This document shows, piece after piece, positions 6,648 to 19,645 of a DNA stretch of 64,000 nt. The stretch is from positions 32,001-96,000 of the forward strand of contig CAYWJO010000004.1 in the NCBI GenBank assembly GCA_964458565.1. The letters run 5' to 3'. This DNA comes from an uncultured archaeon. GTDB lineage: Archaea; Asgardarchaeota; Thorarchaeia; Thorarchaeales; Thorarchaeaceae. The notes beneath the pieces were generated by a model. It was not told where the DNA came from. It made no database searches and worked only from the letters and a program-made list of their open reading frames with translations. The translations under genes were made by a program, and so were the position numbers. The stretch's first letter is position 1. Every line of letters starts with the position of its first letter.

Positions 6648-8093
6648 ATGAGTCAACGTGTCTTTGCTGTTTTCGATATAGGTACAACTGGTACAAGGTC
6701 TGCACTAGTGGATGAAGAAGGACGAGTTCTGTCAATCGAATACGAGGAATATCCTCAGAAACCTCGAGAACTTGAAACTCACGAGCAACTTGCTGAAACC
6801 TATTGGAGAACTTCTGTGAACACAATGCAACGTGCAATTTCTGATTTCTCTCCTGGGGCTTCAGGGATTGTCGGAGTAGTCGTTTCAACAACTCGTGATT
6901 GTATAACTCCTGTTGATAAAGTCGGAACCCCCTTAGCACCAACTGTGACGTGGGTTGACAACAGATCATCCCCTCGAGCGAAAGCGATGGCGGAGGATAT
7001 AGGTCCTCGGAAGAGCGTCAACAAGCTGATGTGGTTTCAAGACAATCGCGCAAAATTGTTCAATACTGCATCTAAATTCATACATCTTGATGCTTTCATT
7101 AATAATCGTCTTTGTGGAGCCATGGTGAGTGAACCTACAAATGCTCGCTTTGGACCAATTGACCATGAAACATTGAAATGGTCTGAAGAACTTTGCAAGC
7201 AAACAGGAATCCCCATAGACAAACTAGCTGATATTGTTGAACCTGGTAAACTTATTGGAGAGATATCCAGCGATGCTGCAAAAGCAACTGGGCTTCAAAA
7301 AGGAACTGCTGTTATAATGGGTGCGGGTGACCAACAATGTGCAGCGTTAGGAACAGGTACAATCCGTTCTGGTGTTGTCAAAGCTACAACTGGTACAGGC
7401 ACTTTTGTTATCACTCACACAGATGAATACATCGAAGAACCCTATGTCATGTTCTCAAATCCTGCGGCAATTCCGGGAAAATGGATTCTTGAAGGAGTCA
7501 TTCCTGGTACTGGTCTAGCTTACAAATGGTATCGCGACAATTATTTTGAAGCAGAAAAGGGGAGGGACAAGAATGTGTATGAAATAATGGAATCTGCTGC
7601 ATCATCAGTTCCTACAGGAAGTGATGGTCTCGTTGTATTTCCTTTTATGGCATATAACAAAGGTATATTCTACAACCTCGGATTCAGTCATTCTCGAGCT
7701 CATATTGCACGAGCGATTATGGAATCTAACGGATATGGCATTAACATGTACCTGCAGATGCAAGAAGGGATGTTAGACATTGAATTTGAAGAGTTACGAA
7801 TTGATGGTGGTGGAGCAAACTCTCCTCTCTGGAGGCAAATCATGGCTGATTGCACTGGCAAGACTGTAGTTCTACCTAAATGTCGTGATTCTACTGTCAT
7901 AGGTGCGGCTATCCTTGGTACTGTAGGAACTGGAGTTTATGGAACCTATCAAGAAGCTGTCGAGAATATGTTCTCTGTTGAGGAAAGAAGAGACCCAATA
8001 CCTGAGAATGTACGTGTATATGAGCGGCAATACAGTGTATTTAACAAGATGATGATTTCTGAGATGGCAGAGCTACTCGAACTGACGTCATAG
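6648..8093 (+). CDS. FGGY-family carbohydrate kinase (glycerol/xylulose kinase-like)
   Basis: DIGTTGTRS, WVDNRS, GAGDQQ, TTGTG and DGGGANS motifs. Confidence 0.92.
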   Translation: MSQRVFAVFDIGTTGTRSALVDEEGRVLSIEYEEYPQKPRELETHEQLAETYWRTSVNTMQRAISDFSPGASGIVGVVVSTTRDCITPVDKVGTPLAPTVTWVDNRSSPRAKAMAEDIGPRKSVNKLMWFQDNRAKLFNTASKFIHLDAFINNRLCGAMVSEPTNARFGPIDHETLKWSEELCKQTGIPIDKLADIVEPGKLIGEISSDAAKATGLQKGTAVIMGAGDQQCAALGTGTIRSGVVKATTGTGTFVITHTDEYIEEPYVMFSNPAAIPGKWILEGVIPGTGLAYKWYRDNYFEAEKGRDKNVYEIMESAASSVPTGSDGLVVFPFMAYNKGIFYNLGFSHSRAHIARAIMESNGYGINMYLQMQEGMLDIEFEELRIDGGGANSPLWRQIMADCTGKTVVLPKCRDSTVIGAAILGTVGTGVYGTYQEAVENMFSVEERRDPIPENVRVYERQYSVFNKMMISEMAELLELTS

Positions 8094-8187
8094 ATACATA
8101 TGCTCTTCCGAAATCCTTCTATTGCTGAATAGATTTCGTCAAACCAACCAATTATTAGATCATAATCATCAAGGAGAATTTCCAATC

Positions 8188-9846
8188 TTGACAAATGATG
8201 AATTCGACGTTGTAGTGATTGGTGGTGGCAGTACAGGTACCGCCGTAGCTCGTGACTGTGCAATGCGAGGTCTAAAAACACTACTTCTCGAGCGAGATGA
8301 TATTGCTTCTGCCACAGTTGGAACATGTGCAGGTATGATAAGTTCAGGATTCAAGTATTACAACGAACCCGAGATACTGGATTTGTGTTCTCAGGAAGTT
8401 GTGTACCTCCGACATATTGCTAAACACATAGTGATGAAAACTCCCAACTTGTTTCCTATATTTGATTTAGGTGAATTTTCTTCCACCGGAAGCGGAAAAG
8501 GTGTTGAAGAATACGCCAAGAGGGTGGAAACTAGAGGTGTGCCTCCGTTTCTTTTCTTAACGCCTGAAGATTCACTTGAATTAGAACCTGCAATAAATGG
8601 TGATATTATTGGCTCTGGTTATATTGAAGAGTTTTTCATAGACCCATTCAGTCTCTGTATACTTCAAGCAAAGGATGCAATGAGCTATAATGCGGAAATT
8701 CGAACATATTCCGAAGTCGTCGATATAGAAACAAGCAATGGGGAAATTATGAAAGTGGTTTACTATGATAGACGTTCAGAAGAAATTAAGTACGCAAGAG
8801 CCAAAACAGTGGTTAATGCAGCAGGACCTTGGGCAGATAAAATTGCTGGACTTACTGGGATTAAGCTAGAACTTCGCCACAACAAAGGCGCTCACATCAT
8901 TCTTGATAGAAGAGTTGTTAATGTTGGGATAGTAACTAGAGCTGTTGACCGAAGATGGGTTTATATGTATCCCCATGAAAATACGACTCTCATCGGAACA
9001 ACTGCTCTGGATACTTGGGAGGACCCAGATACCCTGGTGGCGACACACGATGAAATCGAATACTTGCTTAAGAGTTTTGAATGGGTAATACCTTCTGTAA
9101 GAGATGCTCGGATTATTCGGACGATGGCTGGTGTGAGACCGATGGTCCCAATCTGGAAGGTGCCTGAGGGTGAAGTTACAAGGGGTTATGAAATAATCGA
9201 TCATGAATCTGAAGGGGTTTCAGGTTTCTTTAGCTTTGTAGGTGGTAAACTGGTAATGTGCCGGGATATGGCTGAAGCTATAACAAATCTGGTTTGTCAA
9301 AAAATTGGGAACACATCAAAATGCGAGACTCATTCAAAGCCACTTCCGGGAATGGAAGAAGATGTAGATATCATTGCCCTTTCAAAAGAATATGGCATAG
9401 CTCAACACACACTTGAACGAATGAGGGCACGTCGTGGTACTAAGATGATTGAGATATTAGAAATGACTAGAGACCACCCTGAATGGAAATCAACAATTTG
9501 CACTTGCGAACCAGTTATAGAAGCAGAGATTCGGCATACTATTCGTCACGAATTCCCTCAGACACTGAATGATATTAGACGGCGAGTACGATTAGGGACT
9601 GGACCTTGTCAAGGTACTTTTTGCACTTACAAAGCAGCAGCTATTCTGAATGACGAGCTGGATCTTAGTGGAGATGATTATGAGATAGACATCATGGATT
9701 TCTTATCAGAACGCTGGAAGGGTAAACGTCCACCATTTAGACGCGATCAGCTCATCCAAGAGGAGCTGACACAGGGTATGTATGCTTGCGTTGGGAATCT
9801 TGACAGATCAACCGTTGACTACCAATCTAAACCCTGGGAGGAGTGA
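8188..9846 (+). CDS. glpA: Anaerobic glycerol-3-phosphate dehydrogenase subunit A-like
   Basis: IGGGSTG FAD motif, VNAAGPWAD, AGVRP, GGKL, and a C-terminal BFD-like 2Fe-2S region (CTCE...GPCQGTFC); probable TTG start at 8188 after AGGAG. Confidence 0.9.
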   Translation: MTNDEFDVVVIGGGSTGTAVARDCAMRGLKTLLLERDDIASATVGTCAGMISSGFKYYNEPEILDLCSQEVVYLRHIAKHIVMKTPNLFPIFDLGEFSSTGSGKGVEEYAKRVETRGVPPFLFLTPEDSLELEPAINGDIIGSGYIEEFFIDPFSLCILQAKDAMSYNAEIRTYSEVVDIETSNGEIMKVVYYDRRSEEIKYARAKTVVNAAGPWADKIAGLTGIKLELRHNKGAHIILDRRVVNVGIVTRAVDRRWVYMYPHENTTLIGTTALDTWEDPDTLVATHDEIEYLLKSFEWVIPSVRDARIIRTMAGVRPMVPIWKVPEGEVTRGYEIIDHESEGVSGFFSFVGGKLVMCRDMAEAITNLVCQKIGNTSKCETHSKPLPGMEEDVDIIALSKEYGIAQHTLERMRARRGTKMIEILEMTRDHPEWKSTICTCEPVIEAEIRHTIRHEFPQTLNDIRRRVRLGTGPCQGTFCTYKAAAILNDELDLSGDDYEIDIMDFLSERWKGKRPPFRRDQLIQEELTQGMYACVGNLDRSTVDYQSKPWEE

Positions 9847-11216
9847 AAAAAATGGATTTGGATACAGATGTCCTGATAATCGGTGGTGGCATGGCTGGTT
9901 TAGTTGCTGGAATAATTGCTAACGAAACTGGTCTTAAGACAGTTCTTATCAGAAAAGGACAGAGTGCGACATCCTACTCTTCAGGTGCAATTGACATCAT
10001 TGGATATCTCCCTGAGAGTAGTGAATCGTTTGCTTCTCCTTCACGTGGATTGGAGGCTGTCATGAGTCTATATCCCTTCCATCCTTATGGATTACTTGGT
10101 TTCACAGAATCCAAATCTGATCGGAATCTTGACCAAGCTATTACTAAAGTCAAAAATACAATAGATTGGATCAAGAAACACTTTGAGAATACTCCGGCTT
10201 CTCTAGTAGGTGATTTCTCCGAGAACTTGAATCCAATTACAGTTCTTGGAACTACAAAACCAACGTGTCTTATACAGGAAACGATGTGCCCTCCAAACCT
10301 CAATGACGATGATGTTTTACTATTTGCTGGCATCCGAGGACATCCAGATTTCAATGCAACAACTGCTGCAAATACATTTCTTGACCATCAGAGTAGATAT
10401 GGACTTCCTCCAAATAGAGTTGTAAGCTGTGATATTGACCTCACCCCTTTTGGAAAGGCTTACAATATCTCCTCAATAGAGATAGCTCGCCACCTCGACC
10501 ATGCTGGCTCAATAGAGGACCTGATTGTTCCTCTTAGCGATTATGTTAGTAGGAGTGAGGCGACTGCTATCGCTCTACCACCAATACTAGGTTTACGGAA
10601 ATCGAAGACGAATCGAGACCTTCTTGAACAAGCCTTCGGTATGAGCGTCTTTGAGCTACTTTCCCTTCCACCATCTATTCCAGGTCTTAGATTGCAGAAT
10701 TCACTTGAGGATATTTACAAATCTACAGGTGGTTCATTATTGGTTGGTCATGAAGCCGTATCGTTCTCTCATGATGACATGCGAATCAAATCAGTCACAG
10801 CGAAAACACCAATGCGTGAAGTAACCATCAAATTAGAATCGATTGTTTTAGCTACCGGGAAATTCATCGGTGGTGGACTTCAGTCAGCATCTGTCGGTTT
10901 GAAGGAATCAGTATTCAATCTCATGACTGTTAACAGCATTTTCCAATCCGCAAAGGAATTACGTCCTGATCGGTCAACAAACATTAGAGCCCTTCCTGAG
11001 GATGGCCATGATATCTTTAGTATTGGCTTAAGCGTTGATCCACAGTTCAGGCCAGTAAAAAATGATGGCCATCAATTTGCTGACAACCTATTTTGTGCTG
11101 GGTCTCTGTTAGCTAGCTACAATTATGCAGCTGAAAAGAGTGGACTAGGAGTTGCTCTTGTTACGGGACTTGAAGCAGGGAAGAATGCTGCTAACGCTGT
11201 TAGGATGGTGAAATAG
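9843..11216 (+). CDS. glpB: Anaerobic glycerol-3-phosphate dehydrogenase subunit B
   Basis: IIGGGMAG, SSGAID, LPPSIPGLRL, LATGKFIGGGL and SGLGVALVTG motifs; directly after glpA. Confidence 0.9.
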   Translation: MKKMDLDTDVLIIGGGMAGLVAGIIANETGLKTVLIRKGQSATSYSSGAIDIIGYLPESSESFASPSRGLEAVMSLYPFHPYGLLGFTESKSDRNLDQAITKVKNTIDWIKKHFENTPASLVGDFSENLNPITVLGTTKPTCLIQETMCPPNLNDDDVLLFAGIRGHPDFNATTAANTFLDHQSRYGLPPNRVVSCDIDLTPFGKAYNISSIEIARHLDHAGSIEDLIVPLSDYVSRSEATAIALPPILGLRKSKTNRDLLEQAFGMSVFELLSLPPSIPGLRLQNSLEDIYKSTGGSLLVGHEAVSFSHDDMRIKSVTAKTPMREVTIKLESIVLATGKFIGGGLQSASVGLKESVFNLMTVNSIFQSAKELRPDRSTNIRALPEDGHDIFSIGLSVDPQFRPVKNDGHQFADNLFCAGSLLASYNYAAEKSGLGVALVTGLEAGKNAANAVRMVK

Positions 11217-12455
11217 ATGGACGAGCAGGAATCTTTTGAATACGCAAAGCAGACCTTGAAGGTGGAGAAGATCACACCATATAGTAATGAGGATTTCAAA
11301 ATTGTCCAATCGGTTCAAAAATGTATCAACTGTGGCATTTGCCTCAGCCATTGCCCGGTTGTGGGCGCCGTTGGCATTAATCGATTCTCCGGACCTAGAA
11401 GTATTGCTGTTGAACTCAGTCGTTCCCCACCTGAGTTCTGGACTACATCAGATACAATTTACCTATGTACAGGATGTGGTACATGTCGTGAGGTATGCCC
11501 ACAAAATGTAAACGTGCCAGAGATTGTCAATATAGTAAGAGCCAGAATCATGGACCATAGACCTGATCTAGTTCCCAAAGGCCTTCACGTTGTTCATGAG
11601 GTGATTTCAGAACATAAACTGGCTTTCGAACCATGGGATGATATCGAAGAGAAACGCGAGAGTCGAGATATGCGTCTTGAACACTATGACCTTCCTCATA
11701 TCGAAGACCGGATTGTTGATGATGCAGACGTTTTATTTTATCCCGGTTGTCAAGCAGAAGAACGCGCTCAGGAGGTACGAGAGGCTGCGAAACTCATTCT
11801 TGACCACTTCAATGTCAATTATACTCTATTGAATGAAATGAGTTGTTGTGGCTTACCATCCAAGCTTCTTGGTGATAATAGTTCTTTTAGAGAATTAGGG
11901 TCCATAATCACAGAGAAGGTTAAAAAATCCGGAATCAAAATTCTAGTCACTACTTGCGCAGGTTGCACATCAAATCTTAATGAAGTATCCGAACAAGAAG
12001 AATGGGGTATACCGGTTTATCATCTACTAGAGTTTCTTGAAAACGAAATCGGGTTGGATAAATTCAAAGAGAATCTGAAACCTGTTGATAAACGAATCAC
12101 AACAAAGATTGCAGTTCATGATCCCTGTCATCTGATTCGCCATACAGCACGAGAGATTCATGATATTATGTTGAAAATCCTCGCTATCTTACCCGATGTT
12201 GAATATGTACCAACTGGGGTTACTGATTCATGCTGTGGTGGAGGTGGAATGGTTTCTTACCATGCAAAGGATGTTTCCGATGCAGTTGTTGAAGAAAATC
12301 TTGTTGGAATAAATAACACAGATGCCGAACGGCTTGTTGCACCATGTCCATTATGTACAGCACAGCTTGAGAACTCCCTTTACCGAAGTGGCTCTTCAAT
12401 CGAAGTCGATGATCTTACAGTATTCATCGCTCAACGACTAAAACTCAAGAGGTGA
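11217..12455 (+). CDS. glpC: GlpC/HdrD-like Fe-S subunit (2x 4Fe-4S + two CCG domains)
   Basis: Two CxxCxxCxxxCP motifs, SCCG and CCGGGG motifs; third gene of glpABC. Confidence 0.82.
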   Translation: MDEQESFEYAKQTLKVEKITPYSNEDFKIVQSVQKCINCGICLSHCPVVGAVGINRFSGPRSIAVELSRSPPEFWTTSDTIYLCTGCGTCREVCPQNVNVPEIVNIVRARIMDHRPDLVPKGLHVVHEVISEHKLAFEPWDDIEEKRESRDMRLEHYDLPHIEDRIVDDADVLFYPGCQAEERAQEVREAAKLILDHFNVNYTLLNEMSCCGLPSKLLGDNSSFRELGSIITEKVKKSGIKILVTTCAGCTSNLNEVSEQEEWGIPVYHLLEFLENEIGLDKFKENLKPVDKRITTKIAVHDPCHLIRHTAREIHDIMLKILAILPDVEYVPTGVTDSCCGGGGMVSYHAKDVSDAVVEENLVGINNTDAERLVAPCPLCTAQLENSLYRSGSSIEVDDLTVFIAQRLKLKR

Positions 12456-12464
12456 GTATCAATT

Positions 12465-13889
12465 TTGGATTCCAAGAAAAAGAGAGAGATTGCTGAACTC
12501 ATGGGGGAAATAGTAGGGTCCGAAAATGTTTCTATTCATGAAACCGACATGGTACTTAACTCAGTTGACGCATGGCCACTAAGTGAAGCAAAAATCCGCG
12601 CAGGTGAGATGCTTCCACTTGCTGATATTGTAGTATTTCCTAATTCTACTGAAGAAGTGTCTGAAATTCTAAAAATAGCTAACAAACACAAAATACCCCT
12701 AGTTCCAGTTGGAGGTGGGGCTGGTACTTGTGGAGGGACTCTTCCCATATATGGTGGGATACAGCTTGATTTGAAAAGAATGGATAAAATTCTCGAGATC
12801 GATCACGAATCCCTTACAGTAAGAGCGCAAGCTGGAATTATTGGAATTGATCTTGACGAAGATGTGTTGAGACACGGGTATATCACCGGACACACTCCAA
12901 CCTCTCTCAGAGCATCGAATCTGGGTGGATTCATTGCCACTCGTTCAGGTGGTTCAATGTCTTCCTTGTATGGAAAAATAGAGGATCTAACACTTGGTTT
13001 GCAGGTGGTTCTCCCAAATGGAACTATCATTGAATTGAAAGCTGTTCCCAGACATTCAGTTGGTCCAGATTTGAAACAGCTCTTCATCGGCTCTGAGGGG
13101 ACTCTTGGAATTATTACTGAGGCAACTCTGAGACTTTTCAAAATTCCTGAGAAGCGGTCATTTAGGAGCATGTGCTTCAAGGATGTAAAGAGTGGTCTAG
13201 CTGCGATAAGAGAGATTTTTCATTCCAGTATTAATCCTTCTATAGTTCGTCTCTATGATTCTGAAGACACAGCGATGGCAATGTCAAACCATTTTGATAT
13301 TGATGAGGGTGACTGTATGCTACTCTTGGCTTTTGATGGACGAAAGGATGAAGTTGATTTAGATGAACGTGATTCCTCAGAAATCTGTCTGAAGCATGGT
13401 GCTAGAGATTACGGAGAAGGACCATCCGAGAGGTGGTGGAATCATCGATATGATATGTACTATCCTACAAAATACACAACCGCAGGTTTCTCAATTGGAG
13501 ATACGATTGATATTGTAGCTACCTACGACAAGCTTGAGAATGTATATTGGGCAATGAAGGAGGCTATGGAGGCTCATGATGTGGTTGTGATGTCGCATTT
13601 CTCGCATATGTATCCAAATGGTGGAAGCATCTACATGATTTTCTTCTTATCAGCGCCTGATGCTGAAAGTGCTTGGGAGAAATACAAACTTGTTTGGGAT
13701 GATGGAATATCTGCCTGTCACAGAGAAGGAGGTATAATGAGCCATCAACATGGTGTAGGATTATCACGATCTAATTACAATGAAGGTGAATGGGGTCCTG
13801 CATTTGATGTTCTTCGCCAAATCAAAAGGATGTTGGATCCCAATGGGATTATGAATCCTGGAAAAATGGGTTTCGGAGGCGAGTTTTAA
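12465..13889 (+). CDS. FAD-binding oxidoreductase, alkyl-dihydroxyacetone-phosphate synthase (AGPS)-like
   Basis: VPVGGGAG, GHTPTS...LGGFIATRSGG..S..YGKIED, GPDLKQLFIGSEGTLGIITEA, SHFSHMY, GGIMSHQHGVG and LDPNGIMNPGK motifs. Confidence 0.85.
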   Translation: MDSKKKREIAELMGEIVGSENVSIHETDMVLNSVDAWPLSEAKIRAGEMLPLADIVVFPNSTEEVSEILKIANKHKIPLVPVGGGAGTCGGTLPIYGGIQLDLKRMDKILEIDHESLTVRAQAGIIGIDLDEDVLRHGYITGHTPTSLRASNLGGFIATRSGGSMSSLYGKIEDLTLGLQVVLPNGTIIELKAVPRHSVGPDLKQLFIGSEGTLGIITEATLRLFKIPEKRSFRSMCFKDVKSGLAAIREIFHSSINPSIVRLYDSEDTAMAMSNHFDIDEGDCMLLLAFDGRKDEVDLDERDSSEICLKHGARDYGEGPSERWWNHRYDMYYPTKYTTAGFSIGDTIDIVATYDKLENVYWAMKEAMEAHDVVVMSHFSHMYPNGGSIYMIFFLSAPDAESAWEKYKLVWDDGISACHREGGIMSHQHGVGLSRSNYNEGEWGPAFDVLRQIKRMLDPNGIMNPGKMGFGGEF

Positions 13890-15001
13890 TGGATACTGAT
13901 GTGATTGCTGGTCATGTCAGAATGTGTGCAGCATGTCCTAAAATGTGTAGACATGTCTGTCCAACTTTTTTTGCATGGAAATCTGATTCACCAACTCCTC
14001 ACAGTCGTGCTTTACTTATCCATCAAGATATTATTGGTACAAGAAATCTTGACGAAAGAGCAATTGAGGTCATCTATCAATGTTTGGAGTGCAGTCACTG
14101 TCTTACTTGGTGTAAACCAGAAATCGACATTGCTGAGATTGTTGAGCAGAAACGAACCGAATTGGTGAAAGAAGGTCGTTATCCGCGAAAGCTTGAAGAG
14201 ATGAGGAAGAATATTTCTGACTTTCATAACCCTTATGGAGAAAAAGATAACGCACGAATACAATGGAATTCATCCAATGAAAAGGCCAAAGGCAAAAAGG
14301 TGTTTTATTTTGCTGGTTGTACAGCAAGTTACCGCGAACAAACTATTGCAAAGGAAACCGTATCCTCTCTTGGAAACCTTGGGTTTCAAGTAGTAGTTGA
14401 TGAGACGGAACAATGCTGTGGATCTCCATTATTCAGAACCGGTTTTACTGATGACGCTCTTAGGAAGGCTGAATTTAATACCAGACTTCTCAATGAAACA
14501 GATTGCGAATCGATTATTGTGACTTGTCCTGGTTGTTATCGTGCGTTAACACGTGACTATCCAAAACACGGTCTAGAAATCAACAAACCCATTCAACATA
14601 TCAGTGAATTTTTGTCAGAGCGACTTGAATCACTTCCAGCCAAGCAAATGCAGGGCTCCTTCACATATCATGATCCTTGTCATCTTGGACGACATTTAGG
14701 TGTTTATGATGCTCCTCGATCTGTGCTAAATCGGATATTTGTTGCTGACTTGATTGAGATGGAACGTCACGGTGACAATGCAACTTGCTGTGGTAATGGG
14801 GCTGGCCTACGTACACTATTTAGTGAGCAAGCTCATGAGATTGGGGCAGAACGAGTAAAACAAGCTCTTAGAACTGGGGCTGATTATCTGATAACTGCAT
14901 GCCCCTTCTGCAAGAATATGTTGGACTCTGAATCTGATGGACAGATAACAGTTTTAGATTTATCAGAAATTATAGGTCTTGCAATGAGGAGTAAGGATTA
15001 G
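13889..15001 (+). CDS. CCG-domain Fe-S oxidoreductase subunit
   Basis: CAACPKMCRHVCP, CLECSHC, FAGC, CCG, YHDPCHLGR, CCGNG and ACPFC motifs; overlaps the stop codon of the AGPS-like gene. Confidence 0.88.
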   Translation: MDTDVIAGHVRMCAACPKMCRHVCPTFFAWKSDSPTPHSRALLIHQDIIGTRNLDERAIEVIYQCLECSHCLTWCKPEIDIAEIVEQKRTELVKEGRYPRKLEEMRKNISDFHNPYGEKDNARIQWNSSNEKAKGKKVFYFAGCTASYREQTIAKETVSSLGNLGFQVVVDETEQCCGSPLFRTGFTDDALRKAEFNTRLLNETDCESIIVTCPGCYRALTRDYPKHGLEINKPIQHISEFLSERLESLPAKQMQGSFTYHDPCHLGRHLGVYDAPRSVLNRIFVADLIEMERHGDNATCCGNGAGLRTLFSEQAHEIGAERVKQALRTGADYLITACPFCKNMLDSESDGQITVLDLSEIIGLAMRSKD

Positions 15002-15048: not shown

Positions 15049-16161
15049 ATGAATACTGAAGAGCTTCTCCGGTTAAAGATACGATTACTTACAGAGGGTG
15101 CTAGACTCCCGGAGGGTGAATACTCAGGTCGGAAAGGTGGTGCAGGACCTGTAGGAGCTCGATACTTCTTACTGCCAAATGGCAACCCAGTTGGGATTCC
15201 GATTCGATCCAAAGAGGAAGCTATCAAATACGAATCTAAAGAGATTCAATCGACTGAGAACCCATTAATCTGGTTATATGATGATTCTATAGAACTTGAA
15301 CTCGTTCCTTCTCCAAAATTCTACAAACTGAAGACAAGTGATGGATTTCAATTCTCCCAAATTGCATTACTTCATGGAAAGAATACACTTGCCACGACTG
15401 TGTATCAGCATTGCCGATATTGGGATCAAGGACTTCAATGTAAATTCTGTACGATTCCTCATTCTTTGAGTCAAGGGGCTACTATTCTTGAGAAAACACC
15501 TTCACAGATTATGGAGGTTGTGCAAGCCGCCGAAGAGGAAGGTGTTATAGAGAGTATTTTATTGACTACCGGAACCCCTGATACTGATGATTTGGGAGGT
15601 CAGAGATTTATCGATATTGTGAATGGAATTCGGTCTGTTTCTGAATTACCGATTGCCATACAGATTGAACCGCCTCTCGACAAAGAATGGATAAAACAGA
15701 TTCACGCAACTGGAGTTGATGCTATTGGGATACATATTGAAACATTTGATTCTACGTTAAGAGCTGAGATATGTCCCGGAAAATATGAACATGCTAGCAT
15801 TGAGAATTATATGGAGATTTGGCAGTATGCAGCAGGTCTCTTTAGCAAAGGAAATGTGAGCACTTTCATTTTACATGGTTTAGGTGAAAATCTGAATGAT
15901 ACTCTCTCACTTGTTAATGAACTATCAGAGATTGGAGTCCTCAGTGTTGTTGCACCTCTTCGTCCAGCAACGGGCAGTCAACTTAGTCAATACATTCCTC
16001 CTTACATTGGGCATCTGAATGAGTCGGTACAATTTTACAAAGCGATTGGTGAAATATTGTTCAGACATGATCTAAATCCCGCTTTGACACATGCGGGATG
16101 TCACAGGTGCGGGGGATGTACGCCAATTCAAGAAGCATACGATTGGGCGGCGTCTCAATAG
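15049..16161 (+). CDS. Radical SAM protein, MSMEG_0568/NitD-like family
   Basis: R.GGAGP N-terminal motif, IALLHG..LATTV.Q.C, atypical Cx8Cx2C (CRYWDQGLQCKFC), C-terminal AGCHRCGGC. Confidence 0.82.
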   Translation: MNTEELLRLKIRLLTEGARLPEGEYSGRKGGAGPVGARYFLLPNGNPVGIPIRSKEEAIKYESKEIQSTENPLIWLYDDSIELELVPSPKFYKLKTSDGFQFSQIALLHGKNTLATTVYQHCRYWDQGLQCKFCTIPHSLSQGATILEKTPSQIMEVVQAAEEEGVIESILLTTGTPDTDDLGGQRFIDIVNGIRSVSELPIAIQIEPPLDKEWIKQIHATGVDAIGIHIETFDSTLRAEICPGKYEHASIENYMEIWQYAAGLFSKGNVSTFILHGLGENLNDTLSLVNELSEIGVLSVVAPLRPATGSQLSQYIPPYIGHLNESVQFYKAIGEILFRHDLNPALTHAGCHRCGGCTPIQEAYDWAASQ

Positions 16162-16213
16162 ACAATATGCAGAAGTTTTTCAGGTAGGAATGTTCGCACA
16201 TGAGTGATATTCC

Positions 16214-16702
16214 ATGGCTGAGCTTCCGGCTGAAGAAATTAGGATCATCGAATTCAATGAAGATGATGCAGAAGAAATATCCGCACTTTTTAAACAGGTC
16301 TGGTTGCTGGCTGAGGAATATCCTAAGAAATGGCGAGAGTCCAGAATATATACTCCTGAACAAATCATCACTGATATGCGAAATGGGTATCACTATTTTG
16401 GTGCACGACTCCAAGGACAAATTGTAGGTCTCTATAAAGCAATCATTACAGAGAAGGGTCTGTTCGGAGAGCAGCAGACCGTGCATCCAGGCTGCAGAGC
16501 AAGTGGACTTGCATCAGCGATGTACATGCAATTTGCTGAATACGGTCGTAAGAATGGTTGTAAGAGAAATTACTGCAATATATTGGTAGGTCAAGAGGCA
16601 GGTGAAAAGCTCATGAAGCGATTCGCGTTTGCAAAATGGGGTGAGCCATATGAACAAATTGAAGGGATGTTAGTCCAAACATATGAGCGACTACTCGAAT
16701 AA
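16214..16702 (+). CDS. GNAT N-acetyltransferase
   Basis: VHPGCRASGLA motif A; 162 aa. Confidence 0.8.
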   Translation: MAELPAEEIRIIEFNEDDAEEISALFKQVWLLAEEYPKKWRESRIYTPEQIITDMRNGYHYFGARLQGQIVGLYKAIITEKGLFGEQQTVHPGCRASGLASAMYMQFAEYGRKNGCKRNYCNILVGQEAGEKLMKRFAFAKWGEPYEQIEGMLVQTYERLLE

Positions 16703-16777
16703 CAGCTACATTGCGTTGAAGGAAGCTCGTTTTTATATTTCCTATATCTATCTTTGCTAGTATCTGGTGATTTTCCA

Positions 16778-19645
16778 ATGCTCCGGTCCAGTAAATACGA
16801 AGGAAGCTCCGTATGGCCTCTTCAATATGCATTGCACTCGATATGGAGTAATTCCCTGAAGAGTATCGGTGTGATTCTTATACTGGCATCAGGGGTTTCT
16901 ATAGCTCCTGCAGTTATGACATGGACCGCGACAGGAATTAGAATAGCCTTGGATGATTACATTGATGACTCAATCTACCAAATGGGCGTTCGCGTGAAAT
17001 CTCTAAATGATCCCACCGCATTGCAGGCTCTTAGTGAGATTGAACATGTTTGTGAGAGAAATCCATGGATTGGAAATTATACGCGTATTCTGACCACAGC
17101 GTGTCTTGTTGATGGACATCTGAATCCAACAATGCAATATTCTTTCAATTTGGATTATTTTTATGGATATGGAATGAAGGATGCTAGTGTAATACTCGCT
17201 GATAATGATATGCTTGAAGATTGGGCTCCCATTTTTGAATGGGAGGGTAAATTCCAAATCAACGAAAATCAGGCTATTGTATCTGAACGATTTGTAGAAA
17301 CACTCTATGGTGTTTCTGGAGTTCTATATGGCATTGGTGATTTGATAAACATCGACATTGTGCTTGGTGCACACGGAGTGTATCCTGATGGAATGGTTGG
17401 AAATCGTCGATACACTATGATGAATCTTACAATAGTGGGGATATACAAAGTTGTGAAAGCCCCTACACTTCTTGGTGATGCTTTACATGGGCTTCAAAGA
17501 CTAATGTTTGACCCCTATAATGAATATACATTCTATGGCCTCTATGATGGTATAATTGTCAATGTGGATAGAGTATCACAAGAAGTGAAGGATGAAATCA
17601 AAACAAGAAGTTTCTTCAGACAGTCGATGATGATTCAAATTGATGGTAATTCACTTATCAATTCTGGAGAAGATAAAGTCGGATCGAATATACGGTTTCT
17701 TATTTCACGATTCAATGAGGAAATCACAGTAAATGCATGGGGTGTTCAGGAAACAGATAATCTTGAGTCTTACATTTCTGTCTATCTTGGTAGTCGTCTC
17801 ATTCTTGCGTTAGGATTACCTACTCTGCTTATTGCCATTTTCCTCGCTGTAAATACATCTGAGAGTAGTGTAACAAGCAGAAAGGGTGAGATGTCATTGC
17901 TACGATCAAAAGGAGCCTCTTATAATCAGATACTCTCAGGATTTATGTGGGAATCAGTTCTTCTTAGTGTAATCGCACTGTTTCTTGGAATCCTACTATC
18001 TACTCCATTAGCTGCTTATATTGGATCAAGTTCAGGTTTTCTCCAGACTGATCCTGAGTCTTTCGATATATTCATTTCAAAACCATTCATTCCGTATCTT
18101 GGATTAATATTGGCAGCTGGGATTTCACTATGTCTCCCTATGACCTATTTGATACACGTTGCACGACTTGTCGAAGTAGGAGAGGTTGGACGTCCCCTCG
18201 AAGATGAGTCTGCTGATGTTGAAGAAGAAACGCGAGGAACTGGGTCTTATGTAGGACTTTTGCTTTCAATGATGTTTATCATTGTAGGACCAATAATTCT
18301 ACCTACTGAATCTGTAGCAACTGTTGGAGCGATATTATTTGCTACCCTCCTTCTCTATGCAGCTTCGTATTTTGGAACCCAAATAACACGTAGGGGTATC
18401 GGTAAGATTGCAAATGATGCAGGATTCACTATGGGTGAAAAGAGTCTTTATCTTGCGAGGAGTTTACAGAAGCGTAAAGGCCAACATCTACCAATATTAA
18501 TTCTATTGACACTTATTCTTACATCTTCAACCATGCTTGTTGTACAATACAATAACTACACTGTTCATCTCAGTAATGAAATGGAGTATTCTATCGGAGC
18601 TGATGTACGAATCGAAACGGATGGTTCTCCCCTATCAATCAACTGGACAGTCTATCAGGTTCCAGGTGTCAAAGAGATAACACCTTTAATGAAATACTAT
18701 CGGATTGTTGCAACCGAACCTATCTACTTCATTGGAATTGATGCACCCGCGTTCTCTCGTATTGCTTATTTCAAAGAAGACAGTTTTAGTTCTGGGGCTG
18801 CAAAAGACGTCCTTGAAATATTAGATCAACAGCAAAATGGAATCGTTATTAGTACTTATCATGCTAATTTATGGAATATGAGTGTTGGAGATACACTCTC
18901 TATATTTGCTGACTTTATCGTTGTTGGCCTGATGGATCATCTTCCCGGTCTGGGTGTTGCAGCTTCTTCTGCTTACCCTGAAAATACACTTCCTCAAGCA
19001 ATGGATACTCAAGTGATTGGAGCTGGTTTCGCAATTGTGAACCTCGAATATCTTATGAATGTAACACATAAGTCTCGAGCTAATCTCTTTCTAGTTGATC
19101 TCTTTCCTCATGCAAATGTATCAAGTACTATCCGCGAATTAAATAACCGTCTGCCATCAGCAAAAGTAAGGTCCCCACTCACTCGAAATTTCTTATTTAC
19201 AGGACTTAGATCTCGTCTTTATTTGCAGGGATTATCTGGACTTCTATCAATCACATTTGTTATATCAACAGGAATGGGTATCTTTGCCGTTCTTACAATG
19301 TTGAGTTCATCTGTGGATTCTCGAAAAAACGAGTATGCCATTTTAAGAGCAATCGGTACTACAAGGGATGATATCACTAGATTAGTACTTGGGGAATTTC
19401 TTTCTATCGTTCTTGCAGTAGTATTCTTGAGTATGGCTCTGGGTATCTTCTTTGGAGGATTCCTGAGCAGTATGGCCTTCAATCTATCCCCATATATCCC
19501 AATTCTAAATCAGTCATTAAGTATTCCCTATAGTGTTCTTGGTGTACTTCTGCTGATTCAGGGTGCACTAATGGCTCTTGCGTGTTTAGTACCAGCAAGA
19601 TTGGCAAATAAGACAGACCCAGCCATTCAACTCAGGAATCTCTAG
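16778..19645 (+). CDS. FtsX/MacB-like ABC permease (two FtsX domains)
   Basis: RKGEMSLLRSKGAS and RKNEYAILRAIGT motifs, IGADVRI, C-terminal PARLANKTDP; ATG 16778 follows GGTGA. Confidence 0.88.
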   Translation: MLRSSKYEGSSVWPLQYALHSIWSNSLKSIGVILILASGVSIAPAVMTWTATGIRIALDDYIDDSIYQMGVRVKSLNDPTALQALSEIEHVCERNPWIGNYTRILTTACLVDGHLNPTMQYSFNLDYFYGYGMKDASVILADNDMLEDWAPIFEWEGKFQINENQAIVSERFVETLYGVSGVLYGIGDLINIDIVLGAHGVYPDGMVGNRRYTMMNLTIVGIYKVVKAPTLLGDALHGLQRLMFDPYNEYTFYGLYDGIIVNVDRVSQEVKDEIKTRSFFRQSMMIQIDGNSLINSGEDKVGSNIRFLISRFNEEITVNAWGVQETDNLESYISVYLGSRLILALGLPTLLIAIFLAVNTSESSVTSRKGEMSLLRSKGASYNQILSGFMWESVLLSVIALFLGILLSTPLAAYIGSSSGFLQTDPESFDIFISKPFIPYLGLILAAGISLCLPMTYLIHVARLVEVGEVGRPLEDESADVEEETRGTGSYVGLLLSMMFIIVGPIILPTESVATVGAILFATLLLYAASYFGTQITRRGIGKIANDAGFTMGEKSLYLARSLQKRKGQHLPILILLTLILTSSTMLVVQYNNYTVHLSNEMEYSIGADVRIETDGSPLSINWTVYQVPGVKEITPLMKYYRIVATEPIYFIGIDAPAFSRIAYFKEDSFSSGAAKDVLEILDQQQNGIVISTYHANLWNMSVGDTLSIFADFIVVGLMDHLPGLGVAASSAYPENTLPQAMDTQVIGAGFAIVNLEYLMNVTHKSRANLFLVDLFPHANVSSTIRELNNRLPSAKVRSPLTRNFLFTGLRSRLYLQGLSGLLSITFVISTGMGIFAVLTMLSSSVDSRKNEYAILRAIGTTRDDITRLVLGEFLSIVLAVVFLSMALGIFFGGFLSSMAFNLSPYIPILNQSLSIPYSVLGVLLLIQGALMALACLVPARLANKTDPAIQLRNL

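Follow-up and report, generated by a model that had tools for sequence, protein, structure and literature searches.

Six consecutive genes were analyzed in an uncultured archaeon of the family Thorarchaeaceae (Asgardarchaeota), at positions 6648-15001 of a 64,000-nucleotide stretch of contig CAYWJO010000004.1 (the whole stretch is referred to below as the window). They encode an atypical FGGY kinase, the three subunits of a GlpABC-type anaerobic glycerol-3-phosphate (G3P) dehydrogenase, a flavoprotein related to alkyldihydroxyacetonephosphate synthase (AGPS, EC 2.5.1.26), and a second iron-sulfur (Fe-S) protein with CCG domains, here called CCG2. On balance, we favor the reading that the flavoprotein and CCG2 form a two-subunit flavin/Fe-S dehydrogenase with an AGPS-type active site, which would act, together with the kinase and the G3P dehydrogenase, on a small phosphorylated substrate of the glycerol or dihydroxyacetone phosphate (DHAP) type. 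An original prediction, made from the sequence of the window, had described these six co-oriented genes as a candidate pathway for anaerobic cleavage of ether lipids. All six open reading frames (ORFs) were present at the predicted positions on the forward strand, as were the motifs on which the prediction drew (VVSTTRDC in the kinase and SHQHGVG in the flavoprotein).

The Flavoprotein Belongs to an AGPS/YgcU-Like Clade

Sequence, fold, motifs, and phylogeny agreed in placing the flavoprotein in the AGPS branch of the VAO/GlcD superfamily and not among the 2-hydroxyacid dehydrogenases, as had been predicted. In phmmer searches, the best solved matches were AGPS structures (2uuu, 213 bits; 4bby, 188 bits), followed by LctD (165 bits) and D-lactate dehydrogenases. 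An AlphaFold2 model of the protein (pLDDT 92.4) retrieved AGPS at Foldseek ranks 1-32, with a TM-score normalized to the query (TMq) of about 0.90 (0.89-0.91), as compared with 0.85 for mouse D-lactate dehydrogenase (mLDHD). Normalized to the target (TMt), scores were 0.77-0.79 for AGPS and 0.88 for the 455-residue mLDHD, the model covering approximately 78% of the former and 88% of the latter. Both AGPS and the window protein thus have the VAO-type fold of FAD_binding_4 and FAD-oxidase_C domains. However, AGPS proteins of 584-658 residues compare with 474 residues in the window protein, and an insertion found in AGPS between query residues ~272 and 283 is missing from the latter. Since query residue 43 aligned with residue ~128 of the Dictyostelium enzyme and residue 197 of the guinea-pig enzyme, alignment as well as fold coverage showed that the AGPS-specific N-terminal domain with its gate-keeping helix is absent. 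In AGPS, this additional domain, found only there, controls the channel for the fatty chain through that helix (PMC3509576).

Mutagenesis of AGPS has demonstrated the importance of R352, Y508, and R447 (Dictyostelium numbering) (PMC3509576). Equivalents of the first two, Arg352 (Arg419 in guinea pig; IVRLYD in the window protein) and the catalytic Tyr508 (Tyr578; GGSIYMIF), are retained and were conserved in all clade members aligned. Arg447 has no equivalent in the window protein, in which a Thr, with a Lys next to it, occupies a position that varies across the prokaryotic clade. The HHH loop of AGPS reads H-Q-H in the Thorarchaeota protein and HHH in other Asgard orthologues, in E. coli YgcU, and in the fusion proteins described below. 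All motifs characteristic of the clade (GHxPxS, YGxIED, PRxxxGPD, xRLYD, SHxY..GxxxY, and H(H/Q)HG(V/I)G) were present. The GlcD motifs HxGDGNxH and GEHG(I)G were absent, with SHMYPNGGSIY and SHQHGVG in the window protein as opposed to NVFHAGDGNMH and GEHGIG in E. coli GlcD.

Phylogeny was analyzed with a maximum-likelihood tree of 87 rows (quick search, SH-aLRT support), which included no eukaryotic or Myxococcus AGPS, so that placement relative to eukaryotic AGPS lies outside its scope. The window protein fell in a 76-row AGPS/YgcU-like clade (97% support) whose members include YgcU, relatives from bacteria, and every fusion form. This clade was set off by a long branch (100% support) from GlcD, from GlcD-like matches, and from the four paralogues encoded by the same genome. 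YgcU was 34% identical to the window protein over its full length and shared all signature motifs. P0189 and the Myxococcota proteins at L128 and L130 were considered as true AGPS and rejected, their scores against AGPS structures (190-264 bits) being no better than that of the window protein. Many of the closest database relatives (P0121, P0123, and approximately 35 other cluster representatives) are proteins of 750-1000 residues in which a second FAD_binding_4 unit, itself partial, comes after the AGPS-like unit, so that the tandem resembles GlcD-GlcE; in other close relatives, the FAD and cap domains are separated by an insertion, as in true AGPS.

These results bear on two alternative functions. 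In the first, the protein would be an ordinary D-lactate- or glycolate-type 2-hydroxyacid dehydrogenase, a GlcD and GlcF-like pair that merely lies beside a glycerol operon and serves, for instance, in disposal of D-lactate from a methylglyoxal bypass. A VAO-type flavoprotein with a CCG subunit is indeed the architecture of GlcDEF and of CCG-coupled D-lactate dehydrogenases; fold and size are likewise shared, mLDHD is a strong structural match, and the GlcD model TIGR00387 gave 230 bits. That score is, however, far below the cut-off of 567.9, SHMY...Y and HQH replace the His-His-Glu motifs for 2-hydroxyacid and metal binding, and the fully supported branch sets the clade apart from GlcD-like sequences. 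A specific form of this assignment, in which a nearby metallo-beta-lactamase-fold (MBL) hydrolase acts as glyoxalase II of a methylglyoxal bypass, was rejected since a search of the 93%-complete genome yielded no gene with an MGS domain, the MBL protein had no NCBIfam match, and the D-lactate dehydrogenase motifs are lacking. We therefore consider a 2-hydroxyacid dehydrogenase very unlikely.

The second alternative, that this Asgard archaeon uses a true AGPS to synthesize G3P-based alkyl ether lipids, appears more improbable still. AGPS was the top solved match by both sequence and fold, JGI pipelines label the protein alkyldihydroxyacetonephosphate synthase, and GlpABC next door could supply DHAP. 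Against this assignment stand the missing N-terminal domain and Arg447 equivalent and the presence of an Fe-S partner. Moreover, no FAR or GNPAT gene occurs in the locus, and genome-wide only weak, generic NAD_binding_4 matches were obtained, GNPAT having been searched for in the locus but not in the whole genome. A myxobacterial origin of eukaryotic AGPS has been reported, as has no such pathway for Archaea (PMC13012113). Given the missing domain and Arg447 equivalent, the Fe-S partner, and the fusions of clade members to a sugar kinase or a phosphatase (see below), the AGPS-type exchange of acyl and alkyl groups on lipids that the original prediction took as its starting point is not supported for the window protein.

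CCG2 as Predicted Electron-Transfer Partner

The coupling of CCG2 to the flavoprotein, also noted originally, was evident from a TAATG overlap that joins the two genes. The invariant Cys residues of CCG2 include Cys13, Cys16, Cys20, and Cys24 in an N-terminal ferredoxin-like domain. A search among representatives of 1.8 billion protein clusters identified Bacillota proteins (P0148, P0278) in which flavoprotein, Fer4, and CCG are naturally fused, followed by genes for a DAO-BFD protein, a Pyr_redox protein, and DUF1667. In another fusion, of the flavoprotein to a PfkB kinase, a CCG2-like gene follows. E. coli ygcU is clustered with ygcQR and ygcN/ygcO, which we take to be like electron-transfer flavoprotein (ETF) and like ETF-quinone oxidoreductase (ETF-QO)/FixX, respectively.

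Structure prediction supported binding of CCG2 by the flavoprotein. The predicted complex had an ipSAE of 0.92 in three runs, as compared with 0.00 for the best of three controls; at least 96% of contacts were common to the runs, and pLDDT of the partner was 92 or higher. The ipSAE mark is reached by 58 of 80 solved complexes and by 2 of 110 mismatched pairs, counts that apply only roughly here as own alignments (A1, A2) were used. In the predicted interface, the N-terminal ferredoxin-like domain of CCG2 packs against the FAD-binding domain of the flavoprotein, and the flavoprotein segment at the position of Arg447 lies within this interface. AGPS is redox-neutral and needs no electron partner (PMC3509576). 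A CCG partner that is coupled to the flavoprotein, fused to it in some bacteria, and predicted to bind it thus argues for net electron transfer, which AGPS does not perform.

Electrons might also flow in the opposite direction. The flavoprotein would then act as a reductase that receives the electrons of G3P from GlpABC through both CCG proteins and delivers them to a DHAP-derived or other acceptor, thereby balancing a glycerol fermentation. Such an electron sink would suit fermentative archaea without an obvious quinone chain. It would also fit the two CCG proteins encoded side by side, for both of which TfrB, a subunit of thiol:fumarate reductase, was the best NCBIfam match, and the lack of a membrane anchor: no hydrophobic or membrane-like segment was found in any of the six window proteins. 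FixABCX-type paralogues of E. coli (ygcQRNO) presumably serve reductive flavoenzymes as well. On the other hand, the partners of bacterial relatives are GlpD-like enzymes, which as a rule pass electrons to quinone and do not require a sink of their own; no acceptor suggests itself, and the kinase, flavoprotein, and CCG genes occur in G031 and G032 without an adjacent G3P dehydrogenase. We regard an electron sink as improbable.

Operon Structure, GlpABC, and the Atypical Kinase

Junctions between the six genes of the operon (Table 1) were 0-28 nt or overlapping, with GGAGG-like, Shine-Dalgarno-like boxes upstream. The kinase-glpA spacer of the window measured 28 nt. At glpA/glpB, stop and start overlap or abut: the start of glpB is either a GTG at 9843, overlapping the glpA stop, or an ATG at 9852, behind a GGAGG box. 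The TAG of glpB is directly followed by the ATG of glpC, and 9 nt separate glpC from the flavoprotein gene. The 64-kb window contained no tRNA genes and no Rfam matches.

Table 1. Genes of the operon, with positions in the window and the domains on which each assignment is based.
Gene product	Position	Strand	Domains and remarks
Atypical FGGY kinase	6648..8093	+	FGGY_N + FGGY_C (Pfam); subfamily linked to AGPS-like genes
GlpA-type FAD subunit, anaerobic glycerol-3-phosphate dehydrogenase	8122..9846	+	DAO + DAO_C + BFD [2Fe-2S]
GlpB subunit	9843..11216	+	TIGR03378 above cut-off
GlpC-like Fe-S subunit	11217..12455	+	Two ferredoxin-type motifs + two CCG domains; Pfam CCG twice + Fer4_8
AGPS/YgcU-like VAO-type flavoprotein, 474 aa	12465..13889	+	FAD_binding_4 + FAD-oxidase_C; predicted catalytic subunit
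Second CCG Fe-S protein (CCG2)	13889..15001	+	Pfam CCG twice + Fer4_8; predicted electron-transfer partner of flavoprotein

Domain composition and gene order of GlpABC were canonical. GlpA matched TIGR03377 over its full length (411 bits, E 6e-123), below the equivalog cut-off of 552.8; alignment with its orthologues begins at residue 27, so that its actual start may be ~20-26 codons farther downstream. GlpB scored 233 bits against the TIGR03378 cut-off of 174, and the GlpC-like protein scored 111 bits against the GlpC cut-off of 278.

The original indication that the kinase is not a typical GlpK was supported. It scored below every NCBIfam cut-off (XylB, 217 bits; LsrK, 210; GntK, 203; GlpK, 145, with an equivalog cut-off of 590 for TIGR01311) and, by these scores, resembles XylB, LsrK, and GntK more than it does GlpK. 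From E. coli GlpK, we take Arg83-Glu84, Tyr135, and Asp245 to be the glycerol-binding residues. Alignment with Thermococcus GlpK and other FGGY kinases showed that Arg83, Asp245-Gln246, and the GTGTF strand are retained, that Glu84 is replaced by Asp in the window kinase and by Ala in other Asgard orthologues, and that a loop of ~12 residues carrying Tyr135 is deleted. This deletion was shared by the Anaerolineaceae kinase and by E. coli YgcE. Judged from these residues, the substrate pocket is probably wider than that of GlpK.

The genome encodes three other FGGY kinases, one of which passed the XylB cut-off. As no FGGY kinase in the 93%-complete genome passed the GlpK cut-off, the operon kinase is the only candidate feeder of GlpABC. 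This lack of GlpK agrees with an earlier report (Manoharan et al., 2019; PMC6737245). At L115 (4880-6373, + strand), a kinase that adjoins a fusion of a HAD domain to the AGPS-like protein passed the PRK00047 subfamily cut-off but missed TIGR01311 by 11 bits and has Ala at the Glu84 position (NQRAT), which weakens its candidacy as a bona fide GlpK. Even within the GlpK subfamily, kinases linked to the flavoprotein clade may have an altered substrate pocket in common.

Conservation of the Gene Set and Its Flanks

Conservation was surveyed by tblastn of the window proteins on 20 loci from related genomes. An identical six-gene order was observed in 13 of 13 same-family (Thorarchaeota) genomes examined, in three Asgard genomes of other families (G030, G036, and G040; 30-51% protein identity), and at locus L083, whose record is labelled Thermoproteota. 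This recurrence shows that the arrangement is not due to chance. Jordarchaeia-type loci contained GlpABC and the flavoprotein, with little upstream DNA left on the contigs. Kinase orthologues adjoined the flavoprotein in all Asgard loci examined except L015, which had no kinase despite a flank of 9 kb on each side, and three Jordarchaeia-type loci, whose upstream DNA was too short to tell.

In G031, G025, and G032, the kinase directly adjoined the flavoprotein-CCG pair and GlpABC was missing. For G025, the possibility that this trio stands alone without any G3P dehydrogenase was rejected, given an adjacent set of DAO-BFD, Pyr_redox_2, and DUF1667 genes, which presumably encodes a G3P dehydrogenase complex of the Thermococcus type. 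In G032, a 492-residue ORF without Pfam or NCBIfam match (L018:10577-12055, - strand) lies directly upstream of the AGPS-like gene, in the usual position of GlpABC.

In most sister Thorarchaeota genomes, the kinase-glpA spacer was ~450-550 bp long and contained a small ORF that belongs to no Pfam family (L020:4172-4681, 115 aa in L020; L021:14649-15170; and equivalents). Genes for thiolase/DUF35, crotonase, MBL hydrolase, and aldehyde dehydrogenase (ALDH), from which a lipid-catabolic region had been proposed, were indeed present. However, together with radical-SAM and GNAT genes, they were syntenic within the Thorarchaeota family only and lie outside the conserved core, so that the proposed linkage to the operon holds in that family alone. 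The thiolase (PRK06064, above cut-off) and DUF35/OB-fold pair occupies 1381-2966. In archaea, such a pair usually forms acetoacetyl-CoA for the mevalonate pathway rather than degrading fatty acids.

Downstream of the operon, at 15049-16702, are genes for a GNAT acetyltransferase and for a radical-SAM protein near the MSMEG_0568 family (TIGR04043, 289 bits, slightly below the cut-off of 303.7). The pair was syntenic in all Thorarchaeota genomes examined but not in other Asgard families. Its bacterial counterpart is part of a larger, nitrilase-containing cluster; here it stands alone. Between GNAT and ALDH, a gene for a 963-residue protein with two FtsX-type permease domains (16754-19645) is inserted that was absent from this position in the sister genomes examined. 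A PF01984 gene, of an archaeal/eukaryotic family, also occurs near the operon.

Linkage to Glycerol-Phosphate Genes Across the Clade

Members of the flavoprotein clade adjoined G3P-dehydrogenase-type genes of three architectures. GlpABC was the partner in Thorarchaeota, in G030, G036, and G040, and in Jordarchaeia. A GlpD-like gene with an FGGY kinase occurred in Acidimicrobiia (L093), Ilumatobacteraceae (L102), and Anaerolineaceae (L088), and in L123-L125 among the 12 top Myxococcota loci, of which L126 and L127 had the kinase only; Chloroflexota L096/L097 had the GlpD-like gene only. At L115/L116, the HAD-flavoprotein fusion is followed by the GlpK-subfamily kinase and then by a GlpD-like gene. 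The DAO-BFD/Pyr_redox/DUF1667 set was found in G025 and in Bacillota. As these contexts were scattered across the clade in the tree, the association must be either old or recurrent. The functional link of kinase, G3P dehydrogenase, and AGPS-like protein that had been predicted is therefore supported, since the three travel together in Asgard archaea and in several bacterial phyla, even with other dehydrogenase architectures.

Among other clade members, there were fusions with a PfkB sugar kinase and with a Cof-type HAD phosphatase, and one member lay in a cluster of DeoR, aldolase, GPI, ROK, and sugar-ABC genes. These fusions and this context point to small, water-soluble phosphorylated substrates.

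Another reading of the same linkage is salvage of 1-O-substituted glycerols, such as alkyl or isoprenyl ethers, acyl esters, or glycosides. The kinase and GlpABC would convert these to 1-substituted DHAP, from which the AGPS-like enzyme would remove the substituent, either by AGPS-type flavin-iminium chemistry with water or by oxidation of the substituted carbon to a collapsing hemiacetal, with electrons passing to CCG2, which would amount to O2-independent ether cleavage. Retention of the catalytic Arg, Tyr, and His loop of AGPS would fit this reading, as would the persistent partnership with a G3P-dehydrogenase-type enzyme, which would make the DHAP-type ketone that AGPS chemistry requires. 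All clade-linked kinases lack the Tyr135 loop and Glu84 of GlpK, which, by reference to GlpK, would open the pocket at the distal end of glycerol. Hydrolase genes adjoin the operon, with an alpha/beta hydrolase in G032 and the MBL hydrolase in Thorarchaeota, and the oxidative variant would account for the Fe-S partner; for this last reason, the pathway originally predicted becomes more coherent if its AGPS-like step is oxidative. VAO itself oxidatively cleaves 4-(methoxymethyl)phenol.

Several observations argue against such salvage. The protein lacks the gating domain of AGPS and has the size of a D-lactate dehydrogenase (TMt 0.88 against mLDHD, 0.78 against AGPS), the six proteins have no hydrophobic segment, and hydrophilic substrates, at least for relatives, are favored by the fusions to PfkB and HAD and by the sugar-cluster context. 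The beta-oxidation-like neighbors are linked in one family only, the thiolase/DUF35 pair being in any case usually that of the mevalonate pathway, and archaeal diether lipids offer GlpA no free 2-OH. Taken together, salvage of 1-O-substituted glycerols seems an unlikely, though chemically coherent, alternative. Within it, substituent stripping that extends to lipid ethers, i.e., monoalkyl or mono-isoprenyl glycerol ethers from lipid debris, is a doubtful proposition; here, the ether-bearing carbon would be oxidized to a hemiacetal, yielding a free alcohol and a C3 keto-aldehyde phosphate.

Discussion

The reading that we favor, a dehydrogenase with an AGPS-type active site, would make the operon a short oxidation line for a glycerol-type polyol. 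The atypical FGGY kinase would phosphorylate glycerol, or a slightly larger or 1-substituted analogue, and GlpABC would oxidize the resulting sn-glycerol-3-phosphate-type alcohol to a DHAP-type ketone. A second redox step, with a net transfer of two electrons, would be catalyzed by the flavoprotein with its own CCG subunit, the substrate being a small phosphorylated molecule of the glycerol or DHAP type. In this step, the Tyr base, the Arg, and the His-rich loop over flavin N5 would activate a carbon next to a carbonyl or alcohol, and electrons would pass from FAD through the ferredoxin-like domain of CCG2 to an acceptor, unlike in AGPS. We infer this direction of electron flow and this type of substrate, as well as the place of the step relative to GlpABC. 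Action after GlpABC is favored by the co-occurrence with G3P dehydrogenases and by an active site built around a DHAP moiety, action in parallel by the loci in G031 and G032.

A number of points weigh against this dehydrogenase reading. Since the kinase-flavoprotein-CCG trio of G031 and G032 has no adjacent G3P dehydrogenase, a serial order after GlpABC is not general. The alpha/beta hydrolase gene that follows the kinase in G032 and the MBL hydrolase gene that flanks the operon in Thorarchaeota hint at substituted (ester or ether) substrates. As natural fusions, and possibly related solved complexes, exist, the score of the predicted complex may reflect likeness only. An AGPS-like active site may also be compatible with non-redox, covalent flavin chemistry, and a dehydrogenase beside GlpABC looks redundant unless the substrates of the two differ. 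Finally, sequence alone assigns no substrate.

Dehydrogenases that combine a VAO-type flavoprotein with a CCG protein are known, but an AGPS-type active site in such an enzyme, in association with a kinase and a G3P dehydrogenase, is uncharacterized; no functional study of a prokaryotic kinase/G3P-dehydrogenase/AGPS-like module was found in the literature. AGPS itself works with FAR and GNPAT, in contrast to the kinase, G3P dehydrogenase, and Fe-S protein that neighbor the window protein. Classical glpK with glpABC or glpD, as in E. coli and haloarchaea, likewise pairs a kinase with a three-subunit anaerobic G3P dehydrogenase, and GlpB of the window passed its equivalog cut-off. The window differs from it in that the kinase is not GlpK, GlpA and GlpC fall below their cut-offs, and a flavoprotein and a second CCG protein are added.

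A close parallel in a model organism is the uncharacterized E. coli ygcNOPQRSUW-yqcE-ygcE cluster. Its YgcU belongs to the same clade, has the same motifs, and also has a dedicated electron-transfer partner; its FGGY kinase YgcE is 26% identical to the window kinase and likewise lacks the region of the Tyr135 loop. In contrast to the operon, this cluster has an ETF/ETF-QO-like partner (ygcQR, ygcN/O) instead of CCG and no adjacent glpABC, and its further genes encode MFS transporters, an SDR, and a GlpP-like regulator. A similar logic may underlie erythritol catabolism in Brucella, in which the FGGY kinase EryA and the GlpD-like EryB convert a polyol via its phosphate to a DHAP-like ketose phosphate. 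No VAO-type flavoprotein or CCG protein is known to take part in that pathway, and, conversely, the window operon has no isomerases of the EryC/H/I type.

If substituent stripping from ethers did occur, the operon would represent an anaerobic counterpart of alkylglycerol monooxygenase, and a catabolic dehydrogenase of this kind would be suggested as the origin of AGPS in eukaryotes and myxobacteria. In environmental lipid studies, BLAST 'Agps homologues', including matches in archaeal metagenome-assembled genomes, are counted as capacity for synthesis of ether lipids or plasmalogens (PMC11868695; bioRxiv 10.64898/2026.06.23.733905). The present analysis describes a large prokaryotic branch that has the catalytic residues of AGPS but is linked with kinases, G3P dehydrogenases, and Fe-S or ETF partners; homology matches of this kind should therefore not be taken as evidence of ether-lipid capacity, nor as evidence on the 'lipid divide'. 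The module is shared by Asgard archaea, Actinomycetota, Chloroflexota, Myxococcota, and Bacillota, and its modified form in the ygc cluster of E. coli K-12 makes an AGPS-type site that passes on electrons testable in a model organism. For Thorarchaeota, whose genomes lack a canonical glycerol kinase, the operon constitutes a candidate route by which glycerol-type compounds may enter central metabolism.

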